Shown: positions 14,361-35,220 of the stretch, one piece after another
Position numbering within the stretch: position 1 is the stretch's first letter
Layout: each line of letters starts with the position of its first letter
Virus record (IMG/VR): IMGVR_UViG_3300025018_002598
Location: 1-64,000 of that record
Strand: one strand, 5' to 3'
Origin: a virus
Taxonomy: Duplodnaviria; Caudoviricetes
DNA: 64,000 bases
The notes under the pieces: generated by a model
Databases searched by the model: none
What the model saw: the letters and a program-made list of their open reading frames with translations, nothing else
What the model was told of the DNA's origin: nothing
Translations under genes and position numbers: made by a program

Positions 14361-14387
14361 ATGAAAACGAAAGGTAGAATATAAGAA

Positions 14388-17300
14388 ATGAGCTTATTTA
14401 GAGACTCCAAAGGCATTAGATTGTTTGATAAAGATTCTTATGTTTTTCATGACGGAAGGACCGCTTCTCAAATTATGGATAAAACAGAACAGACTTATGG
14501 AAATGAAAGTACTTCAAATATAAAAATTTCCAATTTACAAAAATCTGGTGCAATAAATAAAAACAATGGGAATTTCGATGTAAGAAATCCTGTTATGGCG
14601 AATTTCGCATCACCTTCTACTTTTGGATCTTTTGGATCTGGAGCAGGAAGTGGATTACTATATACATCTCCACAATTTTATTCCCCAATTCACACTGCCA
14701 CTAACTGGCAAATACCCACTAAACGCCGTGAAGTTTATCAATGGCAAATCACTGAAAACAGTGGACTTATGCTAGATGACTTAACTTTTATTCTAGTTAA
14801 AGATTTGGATTTTATACCAAAAGAAATTACAAAAGACACCCTTACAGATGGCGTAGTTTTTGAAAATATTAAATCACAAAAAGTATTTGGCGGTGAAGGC
14901 CGTCTAAGAAATCCAGTAAACTTTTTTGAATGTCCGAATACAGATCAAGAATATGTTAAATTTAAAGTTCATGGATCTTGGAGAAAACTAGAAGCCCATA
15001 AAGAACACAACATTTATGTGGTGAAGGGGAAACCTCTTAGAAATGAAACTAAAAAATACGGCGATAAACTTTATAGAAATGGACATAAAGGTAAATTTGG
15101 CAAAAAAGATTATATGGAAAATAAATCTTGGCCAATAGAAAGAATCCCTGCCGATGAAGTTGAGAAAGGGGATTTTCTTTTATTTCCAGTTCCAAATTCT
15201 AAACCCTTAACGGATGAAGATATTAAGGAAGTCCAGTATCAACTAAGTATTACTTCTAACAATACAAATCTTACTTTAAAACCATACAATTATGAAGAAG
15301 ATATGGATTTCCATTGGCTTGTAGGACTTTGCATAGCGGATGGATCTTTAAATGAATCTGGTTTTTTTGGTTATACCAAATATAACTGTTCAATTTCAGA
15401 ACCATCCATAATTGATAATTTAAAAAGAATTTTAAAACAAAAATATGATGAACTCTTATTGGTAGACATTCCCCATACCAACTCCGATAAATGCAGAAGG
15501 ATTTATTGTGAAAATAAAAAATCCTATGAAGATATGTCTAGATATATTACAGGAAAATTAGCCAATAAAAAGTTCAATTCTATAATTCTATCTCTTTCAA
15601 AAGAACAATTGCTTTCTATTCTTGGTGGTTACTTTGATGGTGATGGTTCTTTTACATCTCAAAATAAGTTGGTTGCCAATAATGTTTCTTGTGACATGGC
15701 GGATCAGATTTACCACATGTGTATTATGTGTGGTATTCATGCTTCTATTGGAGAGTGCAAGAGAACTGACGATCATTATGATACTCCTAATGACGAATAT
15801 TATAGAATATTTGTTCCTGCTAGTGATTTACACATATTAAAACCTTATATGAAATCCAATAAAATTCCTGAGAATTTTGAATTCGATGGGAACGATAGAA
15901 CTCTTAAATTCTTTTTTACTGGTGAAGATGGTGTTAGGTATTATGCTCAACAGGTTGCTGGTGTTGAAGAGTATTTTTATACTGGCATTGGTTACGACAT
16001 TCAGATTGATCCAGAGAGAAGTTATGTAGCGAGCGGTTACAAGGTTAGTAATTGTAGATTCTTTTCTCAAAACGATCCTACAATTGCTTCTTCCTTGAGG
16101 TTTTATTCAAGGTTTCCTTTTAATGGATTTGAATTACAAATGTCAGATCCGGTAAGAAAAGAACATTTTGAAAATCTATGTAAAAGACTTAAAGTTAAAC
16201 ATTGGTTGCCTTTGATGGCATTTGATTACTTTAGCATGGGAGATTGTTTCGCTTTTGTTAGTATTCAAACTCCTAATAGTGGTAGTGGCTTTCACAATGG
16301 AGCCGATCCAATTGATTATACTAATGCTAAAATAACTGGTATTTCAATTCTTAACCCAGATACTGTTGAAGTTATTTTTAATCCAATGAATCCAATAAAT
16401 AACTTCATGAATTTAACGATTGATGACAATTTAAAAAAGATTGTTTGGGAGAAAAAACCCATTCAGGTTTATCAAAGTCTTCCTGAATGGTTGAAATTTT
16501 ATGTTCAAAAGAATTTACCTATACCGCTTCACCCTGACAACATCACTCACTTAAAACACGATGAACGTGCTGTCGCTCCTTATGGCGTAAGCATTTTAGT
16601 TCCTTTATTTCCAACTTTAGCTTACCAAGACAAACTTCGTCAAGCACAGTGGATTGTTGCGGAAAGACATATTTTACCAATTAAGATTTGTAAAATAGGT
16701 AACGATCAACGTCCTGCTGGTCCACAAGATATTGCTGATACACAATCACAACTTGGCGCTACTGCAAATGATCCAAATTTAACTTTAGTTGTCCACCACG
16801 CATTTGATTTCCAATGGGTTGGTGCTGCTGGAAAAGTATTACAATTAACAAAAGAATATGAATTGATTGAAAAGGCTTTAATTAAAGGCTTGGGTGTCAA
16901 CGAAGCGCTTTTAAGTGGTTGTGTTCCTGAGTATTCTAGAATCCTTACAAACGATGGCTTTAAAACACTTGACGAATTTGATCAGGAAAAACATTTAGTC
17001 GCTTCTCTTAATCCAGAAACGCATGAGTTTGAGTGGTCAAAACCAACATATACTCATGTTGTTGATTACAATTCTGAAGATGGAATTGATCCTCCACTTG
17101 TTCATTTTAAGGACAAAAAGAGATTAGATAATCTTTTTACAACTGGTCATGAAATGTATGTTAAAAAAAGAAATAAAAAAACATACGAAAAAATAAGAGC
17201 AGATCAAGTTGGGCATCATGACAAATTTATACTAAAAACAAACGGATGGAATGGAATTGTCCCAGAAGATATAGAAGAAAAAACTCTTGGTATTCAATTG

Positions 17301-20013: not shown

Positions 20014-23000
20014 ATGTTTCTTAAGTATGCCAAATTACAAATTCTAAATGTAGCATCTTTTAATAAAGATTTTGAAAAAAAGTCTTCTATGGAAGATGTA
20101 GTCCTTTATAGCCCAAAGACAGCATTTATTAAACATGATATTTCAGAAAATCTTATCATGGCTAAAAATGCTTTGGACATCGTTTCGGAATTAGAACAAA
20201 GAGATCCTGAAGAATGGATCGTTTTCAGGTCTAGGGCCATTGACGCTGGTGGTTCTGAAGAGACTGGTGAAATATGGCATGGAGCCAATGATAACGGTGA
20301 TTTCTTCTCAGAAGAAGAATTACTTAAATCTTACAGCTCCACTGAAGACGGTAAAGAAATTAAATCATTTGAAACTTTCATTAATTGTCCTATTTTTACT
20401 AACCATCAAAATACTGATATAGAAAAAGCTCGTGGAAAAGTAATTAATGCTTTTTACGACAAAGACAATCATTGCGTTTATACTGACGCCTTGGTTGATG
20501 CCAAAGCTTATCCAGAATTAGCTCGTGGAATTAGAGAAGGATATATATCCGACGTTTCTATGGGTGCTTCTGTTAAATTTAGCGATTGTTCAATTTGTAA
20601 TCACAGAGCAACAAATGAAAAAGAATATTGTGTTGTTCCTGGTACCTATATTGAAACGGAAAACCATACAATTAAACCAATTGAAGATATTGAAATTGGT
20701 GACAAAGTATTAACGCAAGATGGCACTTATCAATCGGTTTTAGATATACATGAAAGAGAAATAGAAGATGAAATATTTGAAATTTATGCTTCTGGAAATA
20801 ATGTTCCATTAGAAATAACTGGAAATCATGAAGTTTTAACTATACCAAAAATGTCATATAGAATGACTTTTGAACAATATATTCAAAGAAATGATTTAAA
20901 GCCTGTATATAAAAGAACTGATGAGTTAAATATTGGTGATTTTGTTCTTTATCCAAAAGAGAATCTTCGAAAATCTGAAAATCCTTTAAAATCTTTAAGA
21001 TTTGCTAGGCTTCTAGGCTTATTTATTTCAGAAGGTAATCTTTTTAGAAATAAAAAAGGAGAGATTAACGCTTTAGAATTTCATTTATCTTTAGAAGAGA
21101 AAGATCTTCTTGAAGATTTATTGAATCTAATAAAAGAATTTGCGGTAAGAGAAGCTAAAGTTTATAAAAAAACTTCAACTTATCACATAAGAATATGGGA
21201 TAAAGATCTAGCCGAAAAGGTTGTTTCGTTATGTGGACATGGGGCAAGGACCAAATCTCTTTCAAAAGAAATAATTAATGCTTCTGGTGAATTTAAAATA
21301 AATTTATTAGGCGGAATAATAGATGGTGATGGCTGGGTAGATCCAAAAGACTATAGAAGCGTAATTGTCACGTCTTCCGACAATTTGTCTTATCAAATTA
21401 AAAAAATATCACAAGATCTTGGCTTTTCATGCTCTATTTACAAGACTTTAAATACTCAAAATGAAACTGTAAAATACTCCAGTGGAGAACCAAACACAAT
21501 AAATCATGTAAGATTTGGGTCTCATGCAACGTCAATAATAAAACAAGGAAAATGTAAAAAACTTGAGAAATTAAATTGTCAAGAATTTGAAAAGGCAACA
21601 TCGAGTTGGATTTTTGACAATTATCATGTTTCAAAAATTAGAAAAATATCTAAAAAATATTATTCTGGAACTGTTATGAATTTAGCCGTAGAAAACAATG
21701 AAAATTATATAGCGAATGGAATGATTGTTCATAACTGTTCACATGTAAAAAATCACAAAGGCAAGAAGTTGGGCGGAAAAGAAGTCTATGAAATAAATCA
21801 TGGAATTAAATTCATAGAATTGTCTGCTGTTACAGATGGTGCTTGTGATAATTGTACTATTCAAAATTCATACACTGGTATGGAATTCTTAGATAAATTA
21901 AAAAATATGATTTCGGCAAGTCATTCAAATGCAGTCGCCTTGAAAAAAGTTGCAATGTTCAAGGGTTCTGCTGGTGATGATATTGATAAGTTGAATAAGT
22001 CCTTAGATTTGCTCAAGGGAGTTGCCGAGACAATCCTCAATTCAAAAGATGTTGATTTTGAATTCTTGGAAGATATTGGTCAACTCTTAGCTGAACTCCA
22101 AAGTTTGATTGTTGATTTAGTTGAAGCGGGATTTGCGAATCAAAACCCTGCTGGCGAAACACAAGGGGAAGGCACTCAACAACAAGCTGCTGATGCACTC
22201 ACTGGTGGAGAAGAAGTTCCTGCCAATCAAGGTGCTCCACCTACCGGAGACAATCAGTCTCAGGGATTGATGAGTCCTACCTCCCCTGTTTCATTAGGTG
22301 GGAAGGAACAAAATATAAAAACTGCGAATTTATTAGAAGGTTTAAAAACCCAAGTTCCAGAAATAAAGAAAATACTTGCTTCAATTAACAACTTAAAAAA
22401 CCAAATAACTTTTGACGGAGATGAAGAAATGGCAACCAGCAAGAACATTAAAAGAAAACTAGCTTCTAACAGAATTAGTGAGAAGTTCTCTGAAATCTTA
22501 GAGAGTCAGGTTTCAAATAATGAACCTGCAATTATTAGTGACGGCCCCTATTCTGTTAAAATTGATTTTAACAAAGGAATTCAGGGGTTTGTTGGCAATA
22601 ATAGAGTGATCGCTATGACTGTTGAAGAAGTTGGCGATGATCTTCTTGGTTTAGCCAAAGTAAATCCTTCCGTAATTGGTGGAAGATTGATTGAAAAGCT
22701 TGCTTCCAAATACGATGAAAATGGAGAGGTAAAAATGAGCAAACAAGCAAAAGATTTAAATATTAAGGAGGCTTTTATTGAGAATCCTCCTCCAGTTGAG
22801 CAAGTTCAGGAAGGTCAGTTAGAAGATCTATCTGGTAATTTCGACAGAAAGAACCATCCTGAATTAGCCGAAGGACAAATCGGTGCTACAACTCAAAAGC
22901 AATTAGAAAATGTTCCAAAGTCTAAAGAGACTGGAAAGGGTGACTGGAATAGAGTTCGTCCTGAAGGAACAAAAGAAGATCGTTATGTTCAAGAAATTGA

Positions 23001-26000
23001 ACTAGATCGTCAACGTCCTACTGATTATGGTTCCGAAAGAGCTTCTTCTGGAGCGGCTAAGGCAGAAGGACAGCACTCAGGTACTCAAGAGAGTCAGTTA
23101 CAAATGTCTCTCAACTATGGTTCTGAGAGATGGATTGACGACGCAGCTCCTTGTGATTATTTACCTACTACTGAAGGTCAGTTTTCTGGTAAGGACCGCA
23201 AAGGAAAGGCTGTTGATGAAGTTTACGAAGGTCAACTTACTGGACATAGACAAGGAAATGATTCTGAAGTTTCTTCAGAATCATTTCCTCACACAGCAAG
23301 TGTAGAAGATTATATTGCTGGTAAAGTTGTTACAGCAATTAAGAATGGTCTTACTAACCTTGTAATGGAACATGGTATATCTCCAAAAACAATTGTGAAT
23401 TCAAAAATTGATTCCAAGAAAATTGCTTCTGGAAATAGAAATAAAATTTTAAAGAAAGCACAACTTGCACAGGTTGATGTTCAGAATCTTGCAGAAAATG
23501 AAATTATAGACCAAATTGGTCCTAACATGGATTTGGCAGAAGATTATTTAGATGATGCAATTGTTGTATTGTTTGAAGATCCTGCCGAACTTGAAGCGGA
23601 ACTTAGAAATTATACAAAAGAAAGACTTGCTAAGATTCAAGAAGTTTCTGATAAAGAAGATTCTGATGAAACTGTAGAGTCTAAGAGAAGAAAAGCTCTT
23701 AAAGAAAAGGCTTTCAAGAGAAACGCAAATCGTGTCTCTATGCCTGTTGATGCTCAGAAATTAACAGAACTTTTCCCAGGAGTAAGTGACTTCACTGGTC
23801 TTGATGCTAAATTAGTTAAGCAGAAATTCCTTCAGTCTCAACCTGGTGCAAAACTTCTTGATTTCCGTAAAGTTGACGGTGGATTTGTTGCTGAAGTAGA
23901 ACTTCCAGAACAGTCTGGTGAAGAAAGTGGAAATTCCATTAATTCAAATGGTGTTCCATCTCCTTCAATTCCTTCCAACAATGCTCCTTCTCACGATTCT
24001 CAATCTGCTCAGTCTGCTCAGTCCGATCAGTCTGTAGAATCAACAGTCGAAGTTGCTGCCGAAACAGTTGATAAACTTAAAGCTTTTGCAAAGCAGAAGA
24101 AAGAAGCACAGTCTCCTGCTGGAACAACAATGCCTCCTCCTCAAGGTGGTGCCGCTGGTGGTGGCGCTGCTGGAGACCCAATGGGTGGCGGTGGTGCTCA
24201 AGATTTATTTGGGAACACTCCTGAAGGCGCTGGCGATGTCATTGATGAAACAGAGGATGATATGGAAGATGAAGTTGGAGAAGCTAAACCATTTGGTTCT
24301 TTCAACCCATTTACCGGAAATGAAAACGTAGATGTTGTAGATGGACACTATAGAGATTCTGATACAGGTCTTGAATGGGAAGTTCAGATGAACATCAATG
24401 TTCTTAATCCAGAAAAAATTGATGATATTCAGTTTAAAGAAAATACAGATGCCGACTCAGAACTTACTGAAGGCGAAGATATTAATGAAGAAATTGCTGG
24501 TCAGCCTAACGCTGCTCCAATGGGAGCACCTGCTGGTGGTGGCGCTGCTGCCGATCCAATGGGAATGGGTGCAGGTCCAATGGCGTCATATCCTGGCTGG
24601 GTAAAAGATGCTCCATTGAAACTTGCAATGAAAGCTTCTCCAGAATATTTCTTGAATGAAAAAATGAAAAGTGATCTTAATATCAAGACAGCCTCTAAGC
24701 CAGTCGGTTCTATCTGTCCTCAGTGTGCTTCACACAAAGTGGCTTTCAGAAACTCCGAAGGTAATTGTGCTTCTTGCGGATGTAAGACATATGTTACTGC
24801 TAAAAAGAATAAGGCTGGAAGTCTTGATGTAGATCTTTATATGCTTCCAAACCTTAAGAGAGCGGAAAAAGAAAACCGTTTTGGTGGACACGCAGTTACT
24901 GCGAATGTTGAAAACAAAGAAGTTGTAGAAAAAGCAATTCATCAGATTTTATCTGATAGAAGAGCTTTAGTAAAAGCAGCTTCTATATTAGAAAAAGATC
25001 CAATGCTTGCATGTATCAGCGAACAGTCTGTTCGTGGATTCGACTCAGAAGATTCGATTCAGATTTGTGCTTCCATTAAATCATATCTCACAAAACAAGC
25101 TCAATTTGAAGAAGAGGATGACGAAGAAGATGATAATTCAGAAGAAACTTCATCTCCAACAGTACATGATTCTGACTCAGAAGTAACTGATAGTGTTGAG
25201 TTTGAAGATGAAATTGATGAAAGTGGAGATTCCGAAGGTCTTGAAGAAGTTGAAGAAGAGTCAGATACAGTTGAAGATACTGACGATTCCGATCTTGAAG
25301 AAGTATTTGAAGATGAGTCTGGTGAAGAAGGTGACGACTTTAGTTTAAATCTTCAGTTCACTGATTCTGATGGTAAGTCTGGCAGCATTAACATTACAGA
25401 AGATGGTGTTGATGTAAACGGAGATGTTTTTGAAGGTGCGGAATCTACTGATGATTTCGGTTCAGACATCGCAGAAGACGGCGAAGAAATGTTTGAAGAC
25501 GAAATGGGTGAAGAAGCTCCTGAAGAAATTGAAATTACAGAAATCGTTGAAACAGAAGATGACGATCCATCTTCCTTGGACGGACTATTCTCTTCCTCTG
25601 TAGATAAACTCGATAGAGAAACAGAAGAATCCGAAGGTCCAAGTGAAGAATCTGAAGATGAATTTGACGTAATGGCAAATTCACTTAACACTTCTGAACT
25701 TCTTAGAGGTTCAAGAGTAGCTTCTTCAAATAGAAGCGGTGGTTCTTCTCTAGACCTTGGCTTCTTGAAAGCAGCTCTTCAGTCAGTTCCAACTGATACT
25801 GGAGCGGACGTTCCTAGAAGTGAAGAGCATGGTGTTCGTGACGAAGGTGGAAATGTTCATACAACTAAAAATGAAAATTCCGCAAAAAAAAGAAATTCTA
25901 TTGCCGACACTTCTTTTAATGAAAAGGGAGTAGCTAATGGATCAGACAGAGGAGTTGAACAAATCAAACCTCAAACTGGAAAACATGCTGGATCTGCTGA

Positions 26001-26697
26001 CGATTTTATTGTGACAGCGGGTGAAGACAATAAAGAAAAAGGCAAAAGAAAAGATGTTTGCCCAGACGACTTCGCTGATAAGCAATGTCCAGGAAAGGGT
26101 AAAGATAAATCAAACAAGCCTTACAAGGGTGGTGAGAAAGTAGAATCTTGTAATGCTGGTTCAGAAAAGAAGAAGGTTCAAGCTCAAACAGCACCTACTC
26201 AGCAATTAGAGCCAGTTGACGCAATTGAAGAAGGAAAAGAAGAGTCTAATGGAGAGAAGTTTGACATTCCAAGAGATAAATCTAAATCAAATCCTGAAAT
26301 CAATGTAAAGCGTAAAGATGTTACTAGCCCTACAAAGGTAAGAAATAGTGATTATGGCTTTGGTCAGAAAGCTAAAGATCTTCATACAGAAGTAGTTCCT
26401 AGAGACTCCTCTGGTGATGGACTTGGCGGACCTTCTACTACATTTGAAGATGAAGTAGCAGAGAATAGAACTTCTGGAAGTCCTGATACATATGTTCAGG
26501 AATATCAAAAGCAGAATCAGATCAAGCCAACTCCAGCAGGTAATGCAGAAAATCACGCCACAGCATCTAAAGAAGTTTGTATTAAGATAGCAAAAGCAAA
26601 TGACTTAAATGCTAATAGATTAGAAGCAATTAACTTTGGTTCATTCTATGTTGTTCGTGACCTAGATTCTGGAAGAACATTTAAATATTCAGAATAA
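20014..26697 (+). CDS. Giant prohead (maturation) protease with intein and long acidic scaffold-like tail
   Basis: Protease-like motifs ANDNGDFF, FTNHQN (His), RGKVINA, DVSMGA (Ser), FIELSAV; split Zn motif CSIC...C-H; located between portal and MCP. Confidence 0.85.
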   Translation: MFLKYAKLQILNVASFNKDFEKKSSMEDVVLYSPKTAFIKHDISENLIMAKNALDIVSELEQRDPEEWIVFRSRAIDAGGSEETGEIWHGANDNGDFFSEEELLKSYSSTEDGKEIKSFETFINCPIFTNHQNTDIEKARGKVINAFYDKDNHCVYTDALVDAKAYPELARGIREGYISDVSMGASVKFSDCSICNHRATNEKEYCVVPGTYIETENHTIKPIEDIEIGDKVLTQDGTYQSVLDIHEREIEDEIFEIYASGNNVPLEITGNHEVLTIPKMSYRMTFEQYIQRNDLKPVYKRTDELNIGDFVLYPKENLRKSENPLKSLRFARLLGLFISEGNLFRNKKGEINALEFHLSLEEKDLLEDLLNLIKEFAVREAKVYKKTSTYHIRIWDKDLAEKVVSLCGHGARTKSLSKEIINASGEFKINLLGGIIDGDGWVDPKDYRSVIVTSSDNLSYQIKKISQDLGFSCSIYKTLNTQNETVKYSSGEPNTINHVRFGSHATSIIKQGKCKKLEKLNCQEFEKATSSWIFDNYHVSKIRKISKKYYSGTVMNLAVENNENYIANGMIVHNCSHVKNHKGKKLGGKEVYEINHGIKFIELSAVTDGACDNCTIQNSYTGMEFLDKLKNMISASHSNAVALKKVAMFKGSAGDDIDKLNKSLDLLKGVAETILNSKDVDFEFLEDIGQLLAELQSLIVDLVEAGFANQNPAGETQGEGTQQQAADALTGGEEVPANQGAPPTGDNQSQGLMSPTSPVSLGGKEQNIKTANLLEGLKTQVPEIKKILASINNLKNQITFDGDEEMATSKNIKRKLASNRISEKFSEILESQVSNNEPAIISDGPYSVKIDFNKGIQGFVGNNRVIAMTVEEVGDDLLGLAKVNPSVIGGRLIEKLASKYDENGEVKMSKQAKDLNIKEAFIENPPPVEQVQEGQLEDLSGNFDRKNHPELAEGQIGATTQKQLENVPKSKETGKGDWNRVRPEGTKEDRYVQEIELDRQRPTDYGSERASSGAAKAEGQHSGTQESQLQMSLNYGSERWIDDAAPCDYLPTTEGQFSGKDRKGKAVDEVYEGQLTGHRQGNDSEVSSESFPHTASVEDYIAGKVVTAIKNGLTNLVMEHGISPKTIVNSKIDSKKIASGNRNKILKKAQLAQVDVQNLAENEIIDQIGPNMDLAEDYLDDAIVVLFEDPAELEAELRNYTKERLAKIQEVSDKEDSDETVESKRRKALKEKAFKRNANRVSMPVDAQKLTELFPGVSDFTGLDAKLVKQKFLQSQPGAKLLDFRKVDGGFVAEVELPEQSGEESGNSINSNGVPSPSIPSNNAPSHDSQSAQSAQSDQSVESTVEVAAETVDKLKAFAKQKKEAQSPAGTTMPPPQGGAAGGGAAGDPMGGGGAQDLFGNTPEGAGDVIDETEDDMEDEVGEAKPFGSFNPFTGNENVDVVDGHYRDSDTGLEWEVQMNINVLNPEKIDDIQFKENTDADSELTEGEDINEEIAGQPNAAPMGAPAGGGAAADPMGMGAGPMASYPGWVKDAPLKLAMKASPEYFLNEKMKSDLNIKTASKPVGSICPQCASHKVAFRNSEGNCASCGCKTYVTAKKNKAGSLDVDLYMLPNLKRAEKENRFGGHAVTANVENKEVVEKAIHQILSDRRALVKAASILEKDPMLACISEQSVRGFDSEDSIQICASIKSYLTKQAQFEEEDDEEDDNSEETSSPTVHDSDSEVTDSVEFEDEIDESGDSEGLEEVEEESDTVEDTDDSDLEEVFEDESGEEGDDFSLNLQFTDSDGKSGSINITEDGVDVNGDVFEGAESTDDFGSDIAEDGEEMFEDEMGEEAPEEIEITEIVETEDDDPSSLDGLFSSSVDKLDRETEESEGPSEESEDEFDVMANSLNTSELLRGSRVASSNRSGGSSLDLGFLKAALQSVPTDTGADVPRSEEHGVRDEGGNVHTTKNENSAKKRNSIADTSFNEKGVANGSDRGVEQIKPQTGKHAGSADDFIVTAGEDNKEKGKRKDVCPDDFADKQCPGKGKDKSNKPYKGGEKVESCNAGSEKKKVQAQTAPTQQLEPVDAIEEGKEESNGEKFDIPRDKSKSNPEINVKRKDVTSPTKVRNSDYGFGQKAKDLHTEVVPRDSSGDGLGGPSTTFEDEVAENRTSGSPDTYVQEYQKQNQIKPTPAGNAENHATASKEVCIKIAKANDLNANRLEAINFGSFYVVRDLDSGRTFKYSE
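20629..21735 (+). mobile_element. Intein 3 in prohead protease (369 aa, canonical, LAGLIDADG)
   Basis: Y|CVVPGTYIET start; ITGNH block B; LLGLFISEG and LGGIIDGDG boxes; ends NYIANGMIVHN|C. Confidence 0.92.
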
Positions 26698-26852: not shown

Positions 26853-28172
26853 ATGAGGAGTATAGGAATGAATAAAACACAATTATTTTCAGATGGAACC
26901 TTTATCACAGCTTCCGATTCTGGTGAAATAAAAAAGGCTACAAAGAATGAAGTCGTAGCATTTTTATCTTCACAGTTTCCGGCATCAAAAAGTGGTGCTG
27001 AGTTAGAGGGTGTGAGATTCGACAGTGAGTCTGGTTATGCATATGCAAGATATGCAAATCAAAAAGTTTTCAAGAAGAGAATAGCTCAATCGGCTCCAGT
27101 AAATCAAAGTGAGCCTGTTGATTCTTGCGACAGAACTCAGGAACATGGTGGAAAGAGTGAAAAATTCGACACACCAAGAAATGAGTCTAAATCAAAGCCA
27201 GAAAAGTCTGACAGAAAGGATGTTGATAATCCTACAAAAATTAGAAATAAGAATTATGAACCTGGAAAAGATAATGTTCATACTGATGAGGTTCCTTGCA
27301 GTAAGAGCAATTCGGGTCTAAAGGGCAGTAAGGGAACTACTTTTGATGAAGAGAAGTCTCATACTCAAAAAAGTGGAAACCCAGATTCATATGTTCAAGA
27401 TTTTTCCTCTTCAGAAAAGCCAACTCCAGCAGGTAAAGAAGGAAACCACGCAGTAGCTAATACAGAAGGTGTTCAAATTAAAAGTTCGTCAGATATGTAT
27501 GGTTATGAATCTGTAATGGGTGGCAAAGACGAAGATAAAGAAGGCAAAGGCTTTCCTTTCTTCGGAAAAGGGGACGATGAAGATAAAGAAGACAAAGAAG
27601 ATAAAGAAGACAAAGAAGATAAAACAGAAAAAGGCGCAGACAAAACCGAGAAATCTTCCAAAGATGATAAAAAGGAAGAAGGCGAGAAAAAAGAAAGTAA
27701 GGCGGAAAGCCAACTTAGTATAAAGGTATCTGAACTTCAAGGCAACCTATCTAAGTTAAGTAAAGAACTAGACAAAGGACGTATTCGTGAAGCCCGTCGC
27801 AATGCAGCCGTCAAGCTAGTCTTGGCAAAGCGAGACAGAAATCCAGAGAAGTTCCTTGATGGGGAAGTTTTCTTGGAAGAAGTTAACAAGATCGCAAAGA
27901 AAATGAGTGTAGAAGCAATCGAAACAGCAATTGAAGAAATCGGTATTATTAGATTACAAGAAGTAGAAAATTCGAAAGCGATCAAAGAAGCTGCTGCTGA
28001 ACTAAAAGCAGAACCAAACAGAGCAGGCTTAATGCAAAGCCTTGTTGTCCCACAGGACAATTATAAATTTGCAAGCAAGTCAAATGAATCAAATCTATCA
28101 GAAGTTCTGATGGCACATACCAAATTTGGTAAAGATGTAGAAAAAATGAGAAAGTACCATGAGGAAAATTAA
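26853..28172 (+). CDS. Capsid scaffolding-like protein
   Basis: Between protease and MCP; EDK repeats, C-terminal coiled coil, terminal LSEVLMAHTKF; N-terminal module paralogous to the protease tail. Confidence 0.65.
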   Translation: MRSIGMNKTQLFSDGTFITASDSGEIKKATKNEVVAFLSSQFPASKSGAELEGVRFDSESGYAYARYANQKVFKKRIAQSAPVNQSEPVDSCDRTQEHGGKSEKFDTPRNESKSKPEKSDRKDVDNPTKIRNKNYEPGKDNVHTDEVPCSKSNSGLKGSKGTTFDEEKSHTQKSGNPDSYVQDFSSSEKPTPAGKEGNHAVANTEGVQIKSSSDMYGYESVMGGKDEDKEGKGFPFFGKGDDEDKEDKEDKEDKEDKTEKGADKTEKSSKDDKKEEGEKKESKAESQLSIKVSELQGNLSKLSKELDKGRIREARRNAAVKLVLAKRDRNPEKFLDGEVFLEEVNKIAKKMSVEAIETAIEEIGIIRLQEVENSKAIKEAAAELKAEPNRAGLMQSLVVPQDNYKFASKSNESNLSEVLMAHTKFGKDVEKMRKYHEEN

Positions 28173-28205: not shown

Positions 28206-28823
28206 ATGTTAATTCCTATTTTTCGTGTAATAGCATCTCAGTTCCCAGTAGATACACTTACTGGCAATGTTGAGATGGGAATGGCTGTGGGTCTAGTAGA
28301 AAATTCTGCTGGAAACGTAGTTATTCGTAAGTCCGACGACAACGCTGCTGCGAATACAGCTCAAAACGTCGTTGGAATCGCAGGTGACAGAAAGCGTGCT
28401 TCTGAAGCCTATGAGTGGACCAATCGTGTCTCTGACATGGGTGATGATACTTCTGCCAGCGGTCTTATGACTGTTTATCATGGCGGTGGTGAATTCTGGT
28501 TCGACGTTGATGATGGTAACATCACAACTCCACTAAATGAGTCTACAATTCGTGGACCTATTTCCAGTGCGGCAACAATTACAGTTGGTGGATATCTTTA
28601 TGTAGCTGACTCTTCTCAATCAAATGAGGAATCTGGTCAGTTCCATAACTCTGAAAGTACAGCAATCGTTCGCTCCGGCGAAGGTGTTCCTGTCCTTCAG
28701 GTTGTTTCTAAGGCATCCAGCATTGAATCCGGTATTCCAGGTGAATACGAACCAGGTTCTAGCGTGAACTACCCTGATCCATCCGTTCCTAGAACATGGG
28801 TTAGAGCAAGAGTTCTAGTCTAA
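28206..28823 (+). CDS. Head decoration / minor capsid protein (putative)
   Basis: GGAGG SD; immediately upstream of MCP; beta-rich (MGMAVGL, VVGIAGD, GLMTVY). Confidence 0.55.
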   Translation: MLIPIFRVIASQFPVDTLTGNVEMGMAVGLVENSAGNVVIRKSDDNAAANTAQNVVGIAGDRKRASEAYEWTNRVSDMGDDTSASGLMTVYHGGGEFWFDVDDGNITTPLNESTIRGPISSAATITVGGYLYVADSSQSNEESGQFHNSESTAIVRSGEGVPVLQVVSKASSIESGIPGEYEPGSSVNYPDPSVPRTWVRARVLV

Positions 28824-28864: not shown

Positions 28865-29731
28865 ATGAGTTTAATCAAGAATACAGCTAATGATGCAGAA
28901 AAAGAGTTGCTTATCGCACAGGCTCTTGAAACACCAGAAGGTCGTGTGGCTTTGGCCCAGGCTATGGTGGAGCCTATCAAGCGAGCACTTGAGTATCAAG
29001 CAATCGGTAGAAAGCTTCTAATGGTGGATGAACTTCCACAGGGAGCGTTGGCAAGATACGAGAAGGACGTAGCGTCTACAGCTTATGTTGTTTCAAGACG
29101 TGGTGGCGTCCGTGACCGTATCGTTGAAGGCGAAGAAGTGTTGGTTCCAACATTTGAAATCGCAACAAATCCTCAGATTCGTTTGAGTGAAATTAAAGCA
29201 CGTAGATTTTATATCGTTGACCGTGCGCAGATGAAAGCTAAAGAAGCTATTCAGAAGCAAGAAGATACCGAAATTCTCGGTGATATTAATGCTGCTGTTC
29301 GTTCTGACCAGACTGTAACTCAGTCCGGTGACTTGAGCATCGCTTCTCTTAACTATGCTTTCTCTACAATTGAGTCTCACGACTTAACTGTAGCTAAGAT
29401 CGTTATGCACCCACAGCAGTATGCTGACATCCGTTTGTTCGGACGTGACGTGTTTGACGAAGCAACAAGACGTGACGTACTTATGTCTGGTCTCTTCGGA
29501 CACCTTTGGACATCCGACATTCACGTTTCACACAGAGTACCACCAGGTTCCGTTTACTTACTAGCTCCGGCTGAGTATGTAGGTGCTATTCCAGTAAGAC
29601 AGGACATTACTGTTCTTCCTGCTGACGATCCTAAGAACTTGAGACTTGGATGGGTTATCTTTGAAGAAATCGGTATTGTTGTTATCAACGACTACGCAAT
29701 CGCAAAGATTAATCTCACAGCAACTAGCTAA
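28865..29731 (+). CDS. Major capsid protein (HK97-fold type)
   Basis: Last gene of the portal-protease-scaffold run; codon usage visibly shifted toward C-ending codons; followed by a strong terminator; motifs VPTFEI, IQKQED, GLFGHLW, GAIPVRQD. Confidence 0.88.
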   Translation: MSLIKNTANDAEKELLIAQALETPEGRVALAQAMVEPIKRALEYQAIGRKLLMVDELPQGALARYEKDVASTAYVVSRRGGVRDRIVEGEEVLVPTFEIATNPQIRLSEIKARRFYIVDRAQMKAKEAIQKQEDTEILGDINAAVRSDQTVTQSGDLSIASLNYAFSTIESHDLTVAKIVMHPQQYADIRLFGRDVFDEATRRDVLMSGLFGHLWTSDIHVSHRVPPGSVYLLAPAEYVGAIPVRQDITVLPADDPKNLRLGWVIFEEIGIVVINDYAIAKINLTATS

Positions 29732-29759
29732 TCAGTAGTTGACAACCACAAACCCAATG

Positions 29760-29790
29760 GGGGCGGGCCGAAAGGCTCGCCCCTTTCTTT
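29760..29790 (+). terminator. Intrinsic terminator after MCP
   Basis: GGGGCGGGCC-GAAA-GGCTCGCCCC hairpin followed by TTTCTTT. Confidence 0.9.
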
Positions 29791-29791
29791 A

Positions 29792-30769
29792 TTAGTAATA
29801 TCTGTCAATAAAATTAATGACTTCATTGTCCGTCATTTCAAAACTAAAATCAATAGATCCATCTCTTACAAATCTTTCAATCTCACGTATCATTCTAGAT
29901 CTTAAAGATAGTATTTCTGAAATGTATCTATCTTTAGACAACAAAGAAGTCTCTTGAGAGAATAGATCGTATATATATTCATTAATTTTAATATAATCTA
30001 TTTCTTCATTTCCCTTTACTTTTTCTTGAAAATTTTCTAATTCACGATCTAAAAAGTCTGACTGTCCAGAAAGTACAGATTCTTTTATTGAATAATTAAG
30101 AAAATAAGGTCTCAAAATAGAAGTCCCCCATGAAATATCTCTAAAGCCATATGATGTAAGATATTCACCTCGACTTATATGAATTACCCTATCTTCTTTC
30201 AATGTATTTTTATTAGAAATTACATCTCCAGTCCCATAGATATATTCTTTTCTTCCATTTTCCATCTTTTGTTCAACATTGTCTGGAATAAGATTTGAAA
30301 TAGATAAATATGTTCCTGAACTTAAATATTTATTCATATTTGAAGATACAAAATTATCTCCAAATAAAAAATAGTTTCTAGCGAGTTCGACGACTATTTG
30401 ATTCATCTCAAGCAAGACTTCTTTTTGTCTGTCTGAACCTTCCATTTTAAACTTGTAGAATTGAAAAGACGACAATCTCTGTATTGTTTCAGAAACTTCA
30501 GAGTAGTTTGTATTGTAATATCTACAATAAGTATAGGTCTCCCTTCGTTTTGTAGGTAATTGCCACTTCATCGCAGCGAGATGCTGAATAAAATGATCTT
30601 CCGGCTCTAGATTGGCCGCTTCTTTCTGAGTCCTACTTAATCCGTATTCTTTCAATTTATATCTAACGTATCTTGACGTATAATTCAAGATTTCTGATAT
30701 CTCGTAACTGGATTTCCTCTGTTTGATGTATAGGTCGTAAAGAATATCTCTATTTATTTGCTTTTTCAT
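29792..30769 (-). CDS. HTH domain fused to a truncated portal paralog
   Basis: N-terminal HTH (LYDLYIKQRKSSYEISEILN...YKLKEYGL). It then aligns with the portal extein: WQLPTKRRE/WQIPTKRRE, CRYY/CRFF, NYFLFGDNF/DYFSMGDCF, ISNLIPDNVE/ISILNPDTVE, VIHISR...WGTSILRP/ITHLKH...YGVSILVP. Confidence 0.8.
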   Translation of the reverse strand: MKKQINRDILYDLYIKQRKSSYEISEILNYTSRYVRYKLKEYGLSRTQKEAANLEPEDHFIQHLAAMKWQLPTKRRETYTYCRYYNTNYSEVSETIQRLSSFQFYKFKMEGSDRQKEVLLEMNQIVVELARNYFLFGDNFVSSNMNKYLSSGTYLSISNLIPDNVEQKMENGRKEYIYGTGDVISNKNTLKEDRVIHISRGEYLTSYGFRDISWGTSILRPYFLNYSIKESVLSGQSDFLDRELENFQEKVKGNEEIDYIKINEYIYDLFSQETSLLSKDRYISEILSLRSRMIREIERFVRDGSIDFSFEMTDNEVINFIDRYY

Positions 30770-30872: not shown

Positions 30873-31052
30873 ATGGAAAGAAAAGAAAAAATAAAACTTA
30901 CGTATGAAATGAGGAACAGAACGGGGCTTTCAATGATTATTTGCTATAGAGAGTTAGAGGCGAATGATTGGGATATAGAAAAGGCCAGTAAATGTTATAG
31001 GGATCGCACTCTCCGTGAAAAGAGTAAAAGAGGAGATTTCATCACATGGTAA
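30873..31052 (+). CDS. Stand-alone EF-Ts N-terminal (UBA-like) domain protein, 59 aa, not in ORF track
   Basis: EMRNRTGLSMIICYRELEANDWDIEKA resembles EF-Ts ELRERTGAGMMDCKKAL..ANGDIEKA; AGGA upstream. Confidence 0.7.
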   Translation: MERKEKIKLTYEMRNRTGLSMIICYRELEANDWDIEKASKCYRDRTLREKSKRGDFITW

Positions 31053-31348
31053 CAAAGGATGTTCTTCTGCTAAGTTTATTACAATGGGGAAATCGTCAAC
31101 TAAGTAGAGTAAACAATCCTCATAGATTTTTAGTCGTAATACCTAACGATTTCAATAAAAATGAAATTTTAGAATTTACCAATTCTTACATTCAAGAAAC
31201 AAGTCAAAAATATTTTATATTAATAAAAGAAAATGAAATAAAAGGTAAATATGATATTCATGGACATTCTTGCAATGTTGTATTTTATAAGACTTCTAAA
31301 TTTGAAGACTTAGAATATGCTAAAAATATTTTTATTCCAATGAACTAG
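31046..31348 (+). CDS. Hypothetical protein
   Basis: GAGGAG SD; start overlaps previous stop. Confidence 0.65.
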   Translation: MVTKDVLLLSLLQWGNRQLSRVNNPHRFLVVIPNDFNKNEILEFTNSYIQETSQKYFILIKENEIKGKYDIHGHSCNVVFYKTSKFEDLEYAKNIFIPMN

Positions 31349-31383
31349 GCATGAAGATCTTAATTTTGTAGAGGTACTTTAAA

Positions 31384-31830
31384 GTGGACAAAAAGAAAAG
31401 CGTTTGTTGGAATATAGATCTTACTCAAAAACCAATTGAGCCTAATGAGAAAAGATTAAAAATCAATAAGGCAAAATTTGAATACGAAGGAAAACAATAT
31501 GAATTCGAAGTTTTAGATGTCGTTCATCTTGGAACTTTACCAGAGTGGCAGTTTTCAGATAGAATGTTAGAAACTTGTGGTTTGACTCTATGTATTGTTT
31601 TTGATTCGTATTCAAACAACTTTAACGATACGAATTTAGGTTTGTCAAAAAAGACTTTTACTCTTTGGTTGAGCGGCGATGGAATTTCTTTTCCCGTAGA
31701 AGTTCATGGAGGGAATTATAATCGAAAAGATAATCCAGTTGCAGGTCCAGGAAAATCCTATGATTATGGATATGAAGTAGATACTGATTGTTTTTTTGCA
31801 TGTTCTTCTCCATGCTATTTCAAGAAATAA
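31384..31830 (+). CDS. Hypothetical protein
   Basis: GAGG SD before GTG start; 148 aa. Confidence 0.7.
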   Translation: MDKKKSVCWNIDLTQKPIEPNEKRLKINKAKFEYEGKQYEFEVLDVVHLGTLPEWQFSDRMLETCGLTLCIVFDSYSNNFNDTNLGLSKKTFTLWLSGDGISFPVEVHGGNYNRKDNPVAGPGKSYDYGYEVDTDCFFACSSPCYFKK

Positions 31831-31842
31831 AAAGGATTATAA

Positions 31843-32169
31843 ATGGACAAATTAGATCAAATAAAAAAAGAATTAAAATATTTAGAATTTGCAAAACATT
31901 GTTCTAATGAAAATTTTCCAGCCTATGATCTTTTTGTTAATTATTTCTGCGACAGAGATCCTTATAATTCAGATAATGCAAGAAAAGAGATTAGAGATTT
32001 AATTCATGAAAAACAAACTTTGATATTAGAAGAGGCCTTGAAGACCCCAGAGGGAAAAGAAGCCTTATCTAAATATTTTAAAGATGAAGAAGATAAGCGC
32101 CTAAAAGATGAAGAAAAAAAAGAAAGTAGTAGATTTTATGCTCAGAGAAAAGGAATTGACCTACAATGA
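31843..32169 (+). CDS. Hypothetical protein containing an MCP N-terminal-like segment
   Basis: EKQTLILEEALKTPEGKEAL vs MCP EKELLIAQ-ALETPEGRVAL. Confidence 0.7.
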   Translation: MDKLDQIKKELKYLEFAKHCSNENFPAYDLFVNYFCDRDPYNSDNARKEIRDLIHEKQTLILEEALKTPEGKEALSKYFKDEEDKRLKDEEKKESSRFYAQRKGIDLQ

Positions 32170-32327
32170 TTGATGAAAATGTATTAGATGTTTTTCTAAA
32201 AGAAAGAGAAATAAAATCTAAAGAAATGTCCGAAAGAAGAAAAAAAGAAAGAGTGGTATCCAGCCCATCTCCCATTGCTAATGATAGAGTTAAGGGAAGA
32301 TTTCCCACTTCAAAAGATGTTGAATAA
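32166..32327 (+). CDS. Small hypothetical protein (53 aa), not in ORF track
   Basis: ATGA overlap with the previous stop; AAGGA upstream; MIDENVLDVFLKEREIK... Confidence 0.5.
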   Translation: MIDENVLDVFLKEREIKSKEMSERRKKERVVSSPSPIANDRVKGRFPTSKDVE

Positions 32328-32544
32328 AAAATATTCAGATTTAACTTCAAGATATTACTGTCCAAATTGTGGCAATAAATTAAAGTATGAAAATTCAGAA
32401 GAGGCATTAAGGGAATATAAAGAAGTTGAAGTAAAGTTAAATGAATACCTTAAACTTCATCATCCTCTTAAAATACGCAGTGATCAAGAATCCTATGAAA
32501 CGCCAAGGGGCGACGACTCCTTTGCTATATCTTTTGTAGATTAA
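32275..32544 (+). CDS. Small CPxCG Zn-ribbon protein (likely start ATG 32317)
   Basis: YYCPNCGNKL motif; AAGGGAAG upstream of ATG 32317. Confidence 0.6.
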   Translation: MLMIELREDFPLQKMLNKKYSDLTSRYYCPNCGNKLKYENSEEALREYKEVEVKLNEYLKLHHPLKIRSDQESYETPRGDDSFAISFVD

Positions 32545-32556
32545 GGAAATGTATAA

Positions 32557-33054
32557 ATGGAAGTTATAAAAAAAACAGTTTATAAAACTTCTGACGGAAG
32601 AGTTTTTCTAGATATAAATAAGGCAAATTCTCATGAAGAAACAATAAAACTAATGAAAAGGGATGCGAAAGTCAAAGACTTAGAAAAAAAAGTTAAAGAT
32701 CTCTTTCCCATTTCGAAAAAAGTCAACTGTGAACAAGACAAAGAACTTATGGAATTAACAAAGAAGATTCCTAGTTATTTAGAATATCGAATAGATTTGT
32801 ATTGTGAATTCACTGGAATTCCTCTAAGGGTATACTCTACTAAATTCCATGACAGTGGACATCAGTATGAAAAAAGCTATTCAGAAGATATAGATAGAAT
32901 TTTAGATAGACCGCATACAATCTTAAGGTTGGGTAACGTGGTTAGGACATATTCTAAAGAATCTTATAAAAAAGACATTGTTCCTATTTTAGAGAAAAAC
33001 CATCTAGTCATAAAGAAATATTTGTTTGAGTTCTATACTGGAGTGTTGAAATGA
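32557..33054 (+). CDS. Hypothetical phage protein
   Basis: AAGGA SD; N-terminal YKTSDGRVF motif common in small phage proteins. Confidence 0.7.
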   Translation: MEVIKKTVYKTSDGRVFLDINKANSHEETIKLMKRDAKVKDLEKKVKDLFPISKKVNCEQDKELMELTKKIPSYLEYRIDLYCEFTGIPLRVYSTKFHDSGHQYEKSYSEDIDRILDRPHTILRLGNVVRTYSKESYKKDIVPILEKNHLVIKKYLFEFYTGVLK

Positions 33055-33245
33055 AAAAAGAAGATAAATACGTAGGCGCCATTCCAGTAAGACAGGACAT
33101 TACTGTGCTTCCAGCAGATAAAGAAGAAGGATTGAAGTTAGGATGGATAATTTATGAAGAACTTGGCCCAATCCATTTTGCTGAAGTTTTCTGGAAAGAT
33201 TTTTCTGATGAAGACAAGATAAAGAAAATCAACGAATATAGATGA
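33051..33245 (+). CDS. Small protein built from an MCP C-terminal fragment
   Basis: YVGAIPVRQDITVLPAD is identical to MCP residues 238-254, followed by LKLGWIIYEELG vs LRLGWVIFEEIG. GGAG SD and ATGA overlap. Confidence 0.8.
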   Translation: MKKEDKYVGAIPVRQDITVLPADKEEGLKLGWIIYEELGPIHFAEVFWKDFSDEDKIKKINEYR

Positions 33246-33251
33246 GACGAA

Positions 33252-33494
33252 ATGAAGCATATAATCAGAAAAGAATTATATGAAACGAAAGAATATACTA
33301 TTGAAGAAATTCACGAAGAATTATATGAAACGAAAGAATATACTATTGAAGAAATTCACGAAGAATTAAATCGAAGATTAGAGGCGACAAAAGAAAAGGA
33401 CTTGCCGAGATATTTATCTTACAATAAAGATAAGTTTGAGTATGATGAAGATGGAAAAATAATAAAAGTAATTAGTTTGAGAGAAGAGGTTTGA
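33252..33494 (+). CDS. Hypothetical protein with internal tandem duplication
   Basis: ELYETKEYTIEEIHE x2. Confidence 0.7.
   Translation: MKHIIRKELYETKEYTIEEIHEELYETKEYTIEEIHEELNRRLEATKEKDLPRYLSYNKDKFEYDEDGKIIKVISLREEV
33271..33368 (+). repeat. Perfect 45-bp in-frame tandem duplication
   Basis: The unit starting aagaattatatgaaacgaaag recurs at 33271 and 33316, with a partial copy at 33361. Confidence 0.92.
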
Positions 33495-33940
33495 TTGTGC
33501 CAACTTATCCTATAGAATTAGATAGAGGAATTTTTGAAATTGCCGTCTCTGATTATGTCGAAAAAAAGATGGATAAAATTGATTTTATTCGCAATTATGT
33601 GGTGAGAAGTTTAGAGAATGAAGTGAAAGGAAAAATAGTAAGAATCTTGTCTGCTCATTTCCACCAAGATCCTATGATGCGTCAAAACATATATAGAATA
33701 GAAGTAGATTACATCCATGAAGAAAGATATGGAGATCATCTTGGTTCTGTATTTTCTCAGTTATTAGAGAATGGAAGTTATAGAAATCCAGAATATGATG
33801 AGCTTAGATTTGAACAACAATATTTTGTGGACTTTCTACCTACGACTCCCGTACTAAAGCCTTCGAAAGAAAAAGTAAAAAAAGAAATTACATATACCAA
33901 AATAGATTTAGATGATTTTAAATTCATGGAAGTTGAATAG
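33491..33940 (+). CDS. Hypothetical protein, weak similarity to MCP central region
   Basis: IVPTYPI vs MCP LVPTFEI, with a compatible downstream hydrophobic pattern; GAGG SD fits GTG 33497 best. Confidence 0.6.
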   Translation: MIVPTYPIELDRGIFEIAVSDYVEKKMDKIDFIRNYVVRSLENEVKGKIVRILSAHFHQDPMMRQNIYRIEVDYIHEERYGDHLGSVFSQLLENGSYRNPEYDELRFEQQYFVDFLPTTPVLKPSKEKVKKEITYTKIDLDDFKFMEVE

Positions 33941-33954
33941 GAAAGGAAAAAATA

Positions 33955-34587
33955 ATGGGAATGTATACTGTTGTAATTCACCCTGAAACAAAAGAAGAGA
34001 TTCAGATAAAGTGTGGTGGAGATTGGTGTGATAAATATGAAGTGGGAGATGAAGTCCCATTCAAAATACATCCTGATTGTTCTATGATGGCAGATTTTGC
34101 TGATGGGATCTATGTTGGGCTTGGCGAAAGAAATGATTTCAAAAGTTTCAACAGTTACTATGTTGTAATTTGTGAAGGGAAGATTGCAGAGGTTTCCGAA
34201 AAATATCACTCTATGGATTCTAGGGCTGGTTATGAAAGAGAAGAACTTTACAATAAATATAAAGATCGTTTTATAGAACTTGAAAAGTCTTGGTGGAGTG
34301 ATGAGGCTTGGAAAAAAGACGAAGAACTAAAGAAAGAACTTGAGATTAAAAGGAAAGAATATTTAGATAGACATCATCCTAATTATGAAAAATATAGTGA
34401 TGAAGAGAAATTTACAGCCAATGTAGTACATGCAATGTCTGCTTCTAGGCTCAATTACCAAGAGATTGGTAAAAAACTTATGTCCATACAAGAACTACCT
34501 CAAGGTGCTTTGGCTAGATATGAAAAAGACGTTGCCAGTGTTCATCATGTTGTAGGGAAGAGGGAAGAAAATGAAAATAAGAATTGA
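33955..34587 (+). CDS. Chimeric protein: small phage domain plus C-terminal MCP fragment
   Basis: C terminus YQEIGKKLMSIQELPQGALARYEKDVAS vs MCP YQAIGRKLLMVDELPQGALARYEKDVAS. Confidence 0.82.
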   Translation: MGMYTVVIHPETKEEIQIKCGGDWCDKYEVGDEVPFKIHPDCSMMADFADGIYVGLGERNDFKSFNSYYVVICEGKIAEVSEKYHSMDSRAGYEREELYNKYKDRFIELEKSWWSDEAWKKDEELKKELEIKRKEYLDRHHPNYEKYSDEEKFTANVVHAMSASRLNYQEIGKKLMSIQELPQGALARYEKDVASVHHVVGKREENENKN

Positions 34588-34768
34588 AATGTGGGAAGAT
34601 TTTGCATATTCCCTTGGAGAATTGAAAAACGAAACTACATCCTTTTGTGCGATTGCTGAAGTCACTGAAGAAGAACATAAAGAGATGCAAAGAATAATGA
34701 AAGATTACTATAGTTTACAGGAAAGATTAACAGATCTTTATTCAAAATACGAAAAGGAAAAAAAATGA
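34571..34768 (+). CDS. Hypothetical protein
   Basis: 65 aa, overlapping both neighbours in operon style. Confidence 0.6.
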   Translation: MKIRIEMWEDFAYSLGELKNETTSFCAIAEVTEEEHKEMQRIMKDYYSLQERLTDLYSKYEKEKK

Positions 34769-35220
34769 GTTTAGAATCAGATAAAAAAAACGAAGAGTTA
34801 ATTCAATTGGCATTAGAGACAGGAGCGGGAAAGCGAGCAATACAAGAGGCTCTTGGCGGATATGAAATGTTTAAAAGAAACTTAGATGATAAGAATAAAA
34901 ACCTTGTCGAAAGATTAAATGAATCATATTCTAAAATAGAAAATCAATATGAAGAAATGGGCGACAAAGAGTATATAATTCCATTCGGAGTGAAATGTCT
35001 GGTGGAAGCGAGAGACTTTCTATTAAAACATCAGGCTTGGGAAGCGAAAATGTTGGAAACAGATGAATGCTGGGAAGACTCATTACCAAAATTAAATCAA
35101 GAACTATATGATGAATCTTTAGATATTCAGGGAAATAGAAACCACCTATTAAGTCGTATTGAAATGCAATTAAATATTATAATTAAAAAGAATGAGGAGA
35201 AACAAAATGCCAAGTCTTGA
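34765..35220 (+). CDS. Hypothetical protein with MCP N-terminus-like start
   Basis: MSL...EELIQLALETGAGKRAIQEAL...KRNL vs MCP MSL...ELLIAQALETPEGRVALAQAM...KRAL. Confidence 0.7.
   Translation: MSLESDKKNEELIQLALETGAGKRAIQEALGGYEMFKRNLDDKNKNLVERLNESYSKIENQYEEMGDKEYIIPFGVKCLVEARDFLLKHQAWEAKMLETDECWEDSLPKLNQELYDESLDIQGNRNHLLSRIEMQLNIIIKKNEEKQNAKS

Follow-up and report, generated by a model that had tools for sequence, protein, structure and literature searches.

Why would a phage encode segments of its own major capsid protein (MCP) a second time, in small genes close to the capsid gene? The question is raised by a 64,000-nucleotide window at the start of a virus contig of 83,339 bases (IMG/VR record IMGVR_UViG_3300025018_002598), in which a cassette of small open reading frames (ORFs; 30873-35220) follows the MCP gene. 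According to the original prediction, at least four and possibly five of these ORFs contain MCP pieces. Two of them, ORF 33051 and ORF 33955 (ORFs are named here by their first position), do so beyond doubt as judged by sequence comparison. Our tentative explanation is that both are mimics, maintained by selection, of interface elements in this phage's MCP, predicted to act as a docking handle or assembly modulator. The features that bear on the question are as follows.

28865-29731, plus strand: MCP gene, HK97 fold, phage-G type (phrog_2522, gp27, 6WKK); source or model for the copied pieces.
31843-32169, plus strand: 108-residue ORF with a weak motif resembling the MCP N-arm helices at 32011-32073 (MCP 12-32); top-of-noise scores.
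33051-33245, plus strand: 64-residue mini-protein whose residues 7-39 (33069-33167) correspond to the complete MCP P-domain β-hairpin, MCP 238-270, with the turn rewritten (profile match, direct repeat).
33491-33940, plus strand: 149-residue ORF claimed to contain MCP 93-145; MCP similarity not found by shuffle comparison or profile.
33955-34449, plus strand: residues 1-165 of ORF 33955 (33955-34587), conserved domain of an unnamed phage family (125 representatives, profile match).
34450-34563, plus strand: C-terminal tail of ORF 33955, residues 166-203, matching MCP 42-79 (tblastn, scores of the two halves).
34765-35220, plus strand: 151-residue ORF whose N-terminus (34777-34887) weakly resembles MCP 9-43 (tblastn, profile, shuffle z).

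Capsid protein pieces in the cassette

The ORF at 28865-29731 encodes an HK97-fold MCP of the phage-G type. Its 288-residue product gives a full-length family match to phrog_2522 (E = 3e-70, span 8-283), is 53.5% identical to gp27 of Bacillus phage G, and matches PDB entry 6WKK (E = 2e-96). Three comparisons of this protein with the whole contig were made, by tblastn, by a profile built from 81 related MCPs (searched against 683 ORFs), and by shuffled sequences (z-scores for 396 ORFs).

Two ORFs stand out clearly. The hairpin region of ORF 33051 matches MCP 238-270 with a tblastn E-value of 1e-12 and an MCP-family profile E-value of 1.8e-15. It is also recognized by phrog_2522 (E = 1.4e-5), has a shuffle z of 26-33, and includes a run of 17 residues identical to the MCP. 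The tail of ORF 33955 matches MCP 42-79 (tblastn E = 2e-11, profile E = 4.6e-14, z 20-23), with an identical run of 16 residues and an additional match to phrog_2522 as an independent capsid profile. On these scores the presence of MCP pieces in both ORFs is certain. The fragments are 64–68% identical to the primary MCP, and in an all-against-all comparison of the contig they were the only small-ORF copies of a virion protein found; a portal piece in ORF 29792-30769, described below, is detectable in pairwise comparison only.

The shuffled controls separate these two from the other three claimed pieces. The N-arm matches in ORF 31843 (MCP 12-32; tblastn E = 0.19, profile E = 0.38, z 4.6-5.5) and ORF 34765 (MCP 9-43; tblastn E = 0.34, profile E = 0.07, z 3.8-4.5) lie at the top of the noise and are unproven. 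They are the next two best profile matches among the contig ORFs and involve the same N-arm helices, and similar z-scores are reached by three other ORFs. A word search detected no homologue of ORF 34765. The piece assigned to ORF 33491 has to be abandoned, with a z of 0.2 and no match to the MCP profile.

Other parts of the prediction held up well. Along the cassette the MCP pieces occur in the order 12-32, 238-270, 42-79 and 9-43. Each is in frame, occupies an ORF of its own and is fused to unrelated sequence. The ORFs of the two clear pieces are intact and tightly packed or coupled, each with a ribosome site upstream. A single decayed MCP duplicate or pseudogene was rejected, as had been proposed, since the pieces do not follow MCP order, keep their reading frames and are under selection, with ratios of nonsynonymous to synonymous substitution rates (dN/dS) of 0.13 or lower in the cores. 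One relative has a second, full-length MCP paralogue, about 29% identical and located 5 kb downstream of its main MCP gene (L060:16021-16812). Descent of the fragments from such a paralogue was also rejected; its alignment, judged by reading and not by direct comparison, shows no particular likeness to them.

The pieces were placed on the capsid protein using an AlphaFold2 (AF2) model of the MCP (predicted local distance difference test score, pLDDT, 67) and homology to 6WKK. The model contains N-arm helices (residues 10-51), a strand (53-56), the E-loop (72-87), the spine helix (115-144) and a P hairpin (240-252/260-269). In this model, the ORF 33051 piece would be the whole P-domain hairpin (MCP 240-269), MCP 42-79 would comprise the last N-arm helix, the strand at 53-56 and the first E-loop strand, and MCP 9-34 a pair of N-arm helices. 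Within the clade, MCP conservation is highest in the copied segments. In HK97-fold shells, elements of the N-arm, the E-loop base and the P hairpin contact other subunits, scaffold and decoration proteins. A complete HK97 fold, with N-arm, E-loop, spine helix, and A and P domains, was not found in the cassette ORFs. Since ORF 33051 covers only MCP 238-270 and ORF 33955 only MCP 42-79, their products would be mimics of parts and not capsid proteins.

The family tail of ORF 33955 and the local hairpin of ORF 33051

An exhaustive HMMER search with residues 1-165 of ORF 33955 alone (cut-off E ≤ 1e-3) yielded 125 cluster representatives of a family, with 15 of them at E ≤ 1e-10 and a median length of 178 residues. 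A family profile built without the window protein recovers ORF 33955 over positions 1-169 (E = 2e-47), which places its domain within this family. The family has no Pfam, PHROG or PADLOC name, and residues 1-165 have no match in Pfam, PHROG, PDB or BFVD; an Atlas search returned unnamed viral clusters only. The AF2 model of the domain (pLDDT 90) consists of a β-domain (residues 1-82) followed by helices.

The original prediction treated the MCP piece of ORF 33955 as the result of local shuffling, a view that the family contradicts. The MCP profile matches the C-termini of 16 other family members (E = 1e-11 to 1e-3), always at MCP positions 4-77. In the opposite direction, the family profile built without the window protein ranks the window's MCP second among the 683 contig ORFs (E = 5e-5) and matches all 81 MCPs. 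Alignment of the two profiles by hhalign pairs family columns 139-181 with MCP 28-67 (95.4%, E = 1.7e-8). Among 10 family members tested against PHROG, phrog_2522 is the sole match for four and one of two matches for a fifth, and a tblastn search of 50,697 phage genomes with family member P0085 returned MCP genes only. Because the profile searches in both directions, hhalign, phrog_2522 and tblastn agree, the C-terminal tail of the family is assigned as homologous to MCP residues about 16-68 (the N-arm), and the MCP-like tail as ancestral to the family and no product of local chance. A strict tail-motif pattern picks out 30 of the 112 full-length members. The best-matching MCP subtype differs from tail to tail, phage G gp27 being the best match for 9 of the top 25, which hints that the tails track cognate capsids.

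In this phage, the tail is chimeric. Its first half (MCP 42-55) scores 50 against family member P0004 versus 40 against the MCP, and where it seems to depart from invariant MCP positions it has the residues usual in the family. The second half (MCP 56-79) scores 94 against the phage's own MCP versus at most 42 against any family member, and it extends past the point where most other family tails stop. At MCP positions that vary within the clade, the tail has the states of the window's own subclade. In the 16-residue core, 11 of 16 codons differ from those of the MCP, all synonymously and with no replacements, and the 14 preceding residues show seven changes, six of them to residues absent from all 81 MCPs. 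For the piece, dS is saturated, with a core dN of 0.056. The nucleotide sequence of the core is 73–79% identical to subclade MCP genes, approximately their mutual divergence. A recent transfer of the piece from a sampled MCP gene was rejected, the best nucleotide identity to the 81 genes being 65%. Our reading is that a subclade MCP long ago supplied the second half of the tail, which selection on the peptide has kept since.

The hairpin of ORF 33051 has a more local history. A 50-nucleotide direct repeat (29576-29625 and 33069-33118, 88% identical) links it to the MCP gene and is the contig's only significant internal direct repeat besides those near the contig ends. The 17-residue core has rare codons in common with the phage's own MCP gene, which are used by 2, 3 and 7 of the 81 genes and not by the closest relatives, showing that the copy came from this phage's own MCP gene lineage. 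Its core has a dN of 0 and a dS of 0.90, and the whole piece a dN/dS of 0.13; comparison with close relatives assigns at least four synonymous changes to the fragment lineage. The hairpin turn and part of the second strand are rewritten at positions nearly invariant in the 81 MCPs. The start of ORF 33051 overlaps the stop of the upstream ORF. Copying from the MCP lineage of this phage seems to apply to no more than ORF 33051 and the distal half of the ORF 33955 tail, and the substitution patterns place both clear pieces under protein-level purifying selection.

A perfect 45-nucleotide tandem duplication (33271-33360), which repeats a 15-residue peptide within the adjacent ORF 33252-33494, is a likely sign of very recent rearrangement in the cassette.

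Possible roles and origin of the copies

Sequence comparison thus establishes the homology of both pieces, the family-wide tail and its chimeric form, the local copying of the hairpin, and the purifying selection on both peptides. Since the tail and the hairpin keep residues that the MCP keeps, they would be expected to bind the partner that normally contacts those MCP elements. The favoured partner is the assembling shell, i.e. neighbouring MCP subunits or scaffold, with docking by homotypic contacts or strand addition. The mimic proteins may in this way be carried into the procapsid or modulate it. The hairpin of ORF 33051 was taken from the phage's own MCP gene, and the ORF 33955 tail would have had its distal half re-matched to an MCP of the subclade and lengthened as far as the E-loop base (MCP 79). 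The copies are proposed to have arisen by ectopic gene conversion, with the MCP gene, which lies 3-5 kb upstream, as donor, in a recombination hotspot that homing endonucleases and inteins would drive.

Several observations weigh against such a role in assembly. The tail and its cognate MCP were examined in one pair, that of this window, so that the evidence for co-variation is indirect. AF2 renders the tail of ORF 33955 as low-confidence helices, not strands, and a fold search of PDB and BFVD with the family model returned nothing at E ≤ 0.001, leaving the N-terminal domain without a known fold. Relatives of ORF 33051 were not found by a word-based search, which cannot see distant ones. In three other contigs, family members lie in replication or recombination modules and are probably early genes: two tandem paralogues directly follow SbcD/SbcC-like genes in L086 (8797-9306 and 9310-9801), one member follows a sliding clamp in L088, and one follows a helicase in L091. 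Such timing would suit a pre-emptive role better than capsid loading. Nor does the family occur in the records of relatives L001-L005 or in five phage-G-like megaphages that are near-complete to complete, and searches with P0062 and P0085, two of its members, detected none of its genes in phage G or other cultured phages. The family is therefore not needed for assembly, being absent from the phage-G-like megaphages, the closest relatives and apparently phage G.

The second paralogue of L086 has a tail more diverged from the MCP-like motif, and the 134-kb record of L091 has no G-type MCP. A genome-wide search of phage G with the MCP profile only gave gp27 as the sole match, and IMG/VR searches with ORF 33955, A3 and P0064 found no further family members. 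L088 also contains a 75-residue ORF (3566-3793) between genes for a UvsX-like recombinase and an SbcC-like protein, whose N-arm-like start matches MCP profile positions 1-35 (E = 0.008). Its placement recalls that of the T4 head-assembly gene 40, which adjoins uvsX.

The early setting would suit an alternative that we consider unlikely, namely that the peptides are immune decoys: copies of MCP epitopes, made early, that occupy or blunt capsid sensors, such as Lit/Gol, CapRel and other systems triggered by MCPs, ahead of the real MCP. Besides the replication or early modules of L086, L088 and L091, the location of T4 gp61.1 (see below) in the primase cluster is consistent with this proposal, as is the accessory and patchy nature of the genes, which is usual for anti-defence genes. 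The peptides are under selection, and MCPs are known triggers of several defences. However, none of the proteins matches a known anti-defence or defence family in PADLOC, Pfam or PHROG, and a faithful epitope copy is expected to trigger a sensor, not to block it, unless bound unproductively. A possible link to Lit and EF-Tu is offered by the first cassette ORF (30873-31052, 59 residues), which has weak matches to UBA and EF-Ts N-terminal-like domains (Pfam E = 0.001-0.025); all of these are below the curated cut-offs, the EF-Ts-like match having an E-value of 0.025.

The preferred explanation, mimicry of MCP interface elements, must also be weighed against an origin without function, and here the genes around the cassette are informative. 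Relatives were represented by 80 loci with MCPs 62–93% identical to that of the window, in which homologues of the cassette ORFs were sought within 10 kb of the MCP gene. None was found for ORFs 30873-35220, making the cassette unique to this contig, and tblastx synteny with the closest four relatives (L001-L004) reaches the MCP stop and then ends. The spot is hypervariable: a gene for a LAGLIDADG homing endonuclease (PF03161, LAGLIDADG_2, E = 1e-20 in L004) comes first downstream of the MCP gene in 20 of the 80 loci. In L004 this gene is directly followed by an ORF that starts with a piece resembling MCP 40-72, so that a nuclease lies next to a piece of its target, and a second ORF ends with a piece resembling MCP 84-117. 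Weaker MCP bits occur downstream of the MCP gene in L007, L039 and L062. In the window itself, no nuclease domain was found in the cassette (30873-35220), nor was an endonuclease insertion with target duplication. A further trace of such elements lies between the MCP gene and the cassette:

29792-30769, minus strand: ORF in which a homing-endonuclease-type helix-turn-helix (HTH) is joined to a portal segment bridging the intein site of the portal (homing endonuclease gene (HEG) family profile, BLASTP).

Residues 8-61 of this ORF match the HEG-family (HTH) profile (E = 0.002). Residues 65-81 and 82-166 correspond to residues 104-120 and 557-662 of the portal ORF 14385-19250 (BLASTP E = 3e-4), such that the portal-like part bridges the portal intein insertion site and lacks the intein. 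The portal ORF has a LAGLIDADG_3 domain (residues 408-476) inside an insert of ~436 residues, the intein. An intein splicing domain with LAGLIDADG is also present in a 2227-residue ORF (20014-26697, residues 206-574). These features identify the region as a recombination hotspot, and hence a plausible source of the copied MCP pieces. A comparable arrangement is known from T4, where the endonuclease gene segD is located between genes 23 and 24; as in the 20 relatives, it directly follows the MCP gene, whereas the window lacks a nuclease domain at that spot.

Endonuclease or intein breaks near the MCP gene might accordingly have scattered pieces into neighbouring ORFs, leaving a likeness with no present function. 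The endonucleases of the relatives, the inteins of the portal and 2227-residue ORFs, the fusion of an HEG-type HTH to a portal piece, the weak MCP bits in L004, L007, L039 and L062, the 45-nucleotide duplication and the uniqueness of the cassette are all compatible with such debris. We nevertheless regard it as improbable, as the tail is conserved across a family of 125 representatives, and both pieces are in frame with no replacements over 16-17 residues despite a dS of 0.9 to saturation and heavily changed flanks; the cassette itself, moreover, has no detected nuclease gene. Endonuclease activity may explain the origin of the copies, but not their conservation. Very improbable is inter-phage interference, in which the mimics, as dominant-negative caps, would spoil the capsid assembly of related phages infecting the same cell: the copied segments, as the most conserved MCP stretches of the clade, would fit many relatives, and SaPI CpmB provides a precedent for assembly hijack by tail mimicry, but the copies match the phage's own MCP best, implying self-poisoning, and no immunity partner is evident.

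Some features of these loci were noted in passing. In the 20 loci, which fall within L001-L056, the post-MCP LAGLIDADG gene has an N-terminal HTH (positions ~10970-12300, e.g. L004:11007-11894). In L001 the endonuclease is part of a 732-residue ORF (11066-13264) that, by eye only, appears to be a fusion with zinc-finger and methyltransferase-like parts. L007 contains, ~700 nucleotides past the MCP stop, a 17-residue copy of the MCP C-terminus (11523-11573, 82% identical), which looks like an insertion scar that duplicated the end of the gene. The portal ORF has a C-terminal DUF559 nuclease-like domain.

Precedents and the surrounding region

The closest parallel to the two mimics is T4 gp61.1, a protein of 54 residues encoded beside primase gene 61 (L098:4967-5131). 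Its residues 2-38 align with residues 57-93 of gp23, the product of gene 23 (L099:6946-8511), with a Smith-Waterman score of 82 and a z of 12.7, which none of 500 shuffles reached. It is likewise a small accessory protein, encoded in a replication region, whose sequence repeats part of the N-terminal portion of T4's own MCP. Unlike ORF 33955, it copies an MCP of the gp23 type, lacks the conserved N-terminal domain, and its copied stretch spans the gp23 maturation cleavage site.

Other known systems resemble the mimics in part. In 2017 Dearborn and colleagues reportedly described tail-mediated capsid binding by SaPI1 CpmB and the 80α scaffolding protein. The C-terminal tail of CpmB, also an accessory protein, resembles the capsid-binding end of an assembly protein and docks on the MCP; however, CpmB copies scaffold and not MCP, is encoded by a satellite, and redirects capsid size. 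Capsid-targeting peptides include the C-terminal tail of the HK97 protease, the targeting sequence of T4 internal proteins and the cargo-loading peptides of encapsulins. In these, a short terminal peptide suffices for entry into an HK97-fold shell, and it is C-terminal in the HK97 protease and encapsulin cargo, as in ORF 33955. Such peptides are not copies of the shell protein, in contrast; what ORF 33955 shows is the terminal position and a likeness to the MCP. The sensing of the T4 Gol peptide by Lit, and sensing by CapRel, similarly involve recognition of a short MCP segment by a partner, but these are host sensors of the real MCP.

In the literature searched on MCP-arm mimics or capsid decoys, no description of such a family or of such mimics was found. 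Capsid proteins are the building blocks of virions as well as frequent triggers of bacterial immunity. A family tail that copies the capsid arm and a free P hairpin may represent an unstudied way to address, regulate or disguise capsid interfaces. As T4 gp61.1 is the same kind of copy, the question is directly testable in a model phage. If the tails prove to be loading signals, they could be useful tags for packaging cargo into HK97-fold shells. It is a speculative and, at present, doubtful generalization that a general and undescribed class of proteins, early or accessory, exists in several lineages of large phages (with capsids of the phage-G and T4 types) and presents elements copied from the N-arm or P-domain of the phage's own MCP. 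The copies would co-evolve with the cognate MCP and serve either as a self-templated address code for head loading or as decoys that blind capsid-sensing immunity.

The MCP gene is followed by a terminator:

29759-29784, plus strand: strong intrinsic terminator downstream of the MCP gene (11-bp stem, 9 GC pairs).

The phage need not be a jumbo phage, because the record of its closest relative is 96.8 kb long and rated complete. Bases 1-109 of the contig are the exact reverse complement of 81099-81207, and a 107-nucleotide repeat (81123-81229 and 83233-83339, the contig end) is 92.5% identical; these repeats may reflect a terminal structure or an assembly artefact. Upstream of the MCP gene are a scaffold-like ORF (26853-28172) and a homologue of the phage G decoration protein (28206-28823). 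This scaffold-like ORF and the 2227-residue ORF that precedes it have in common a 148-residue domain, 45% identical between the two.

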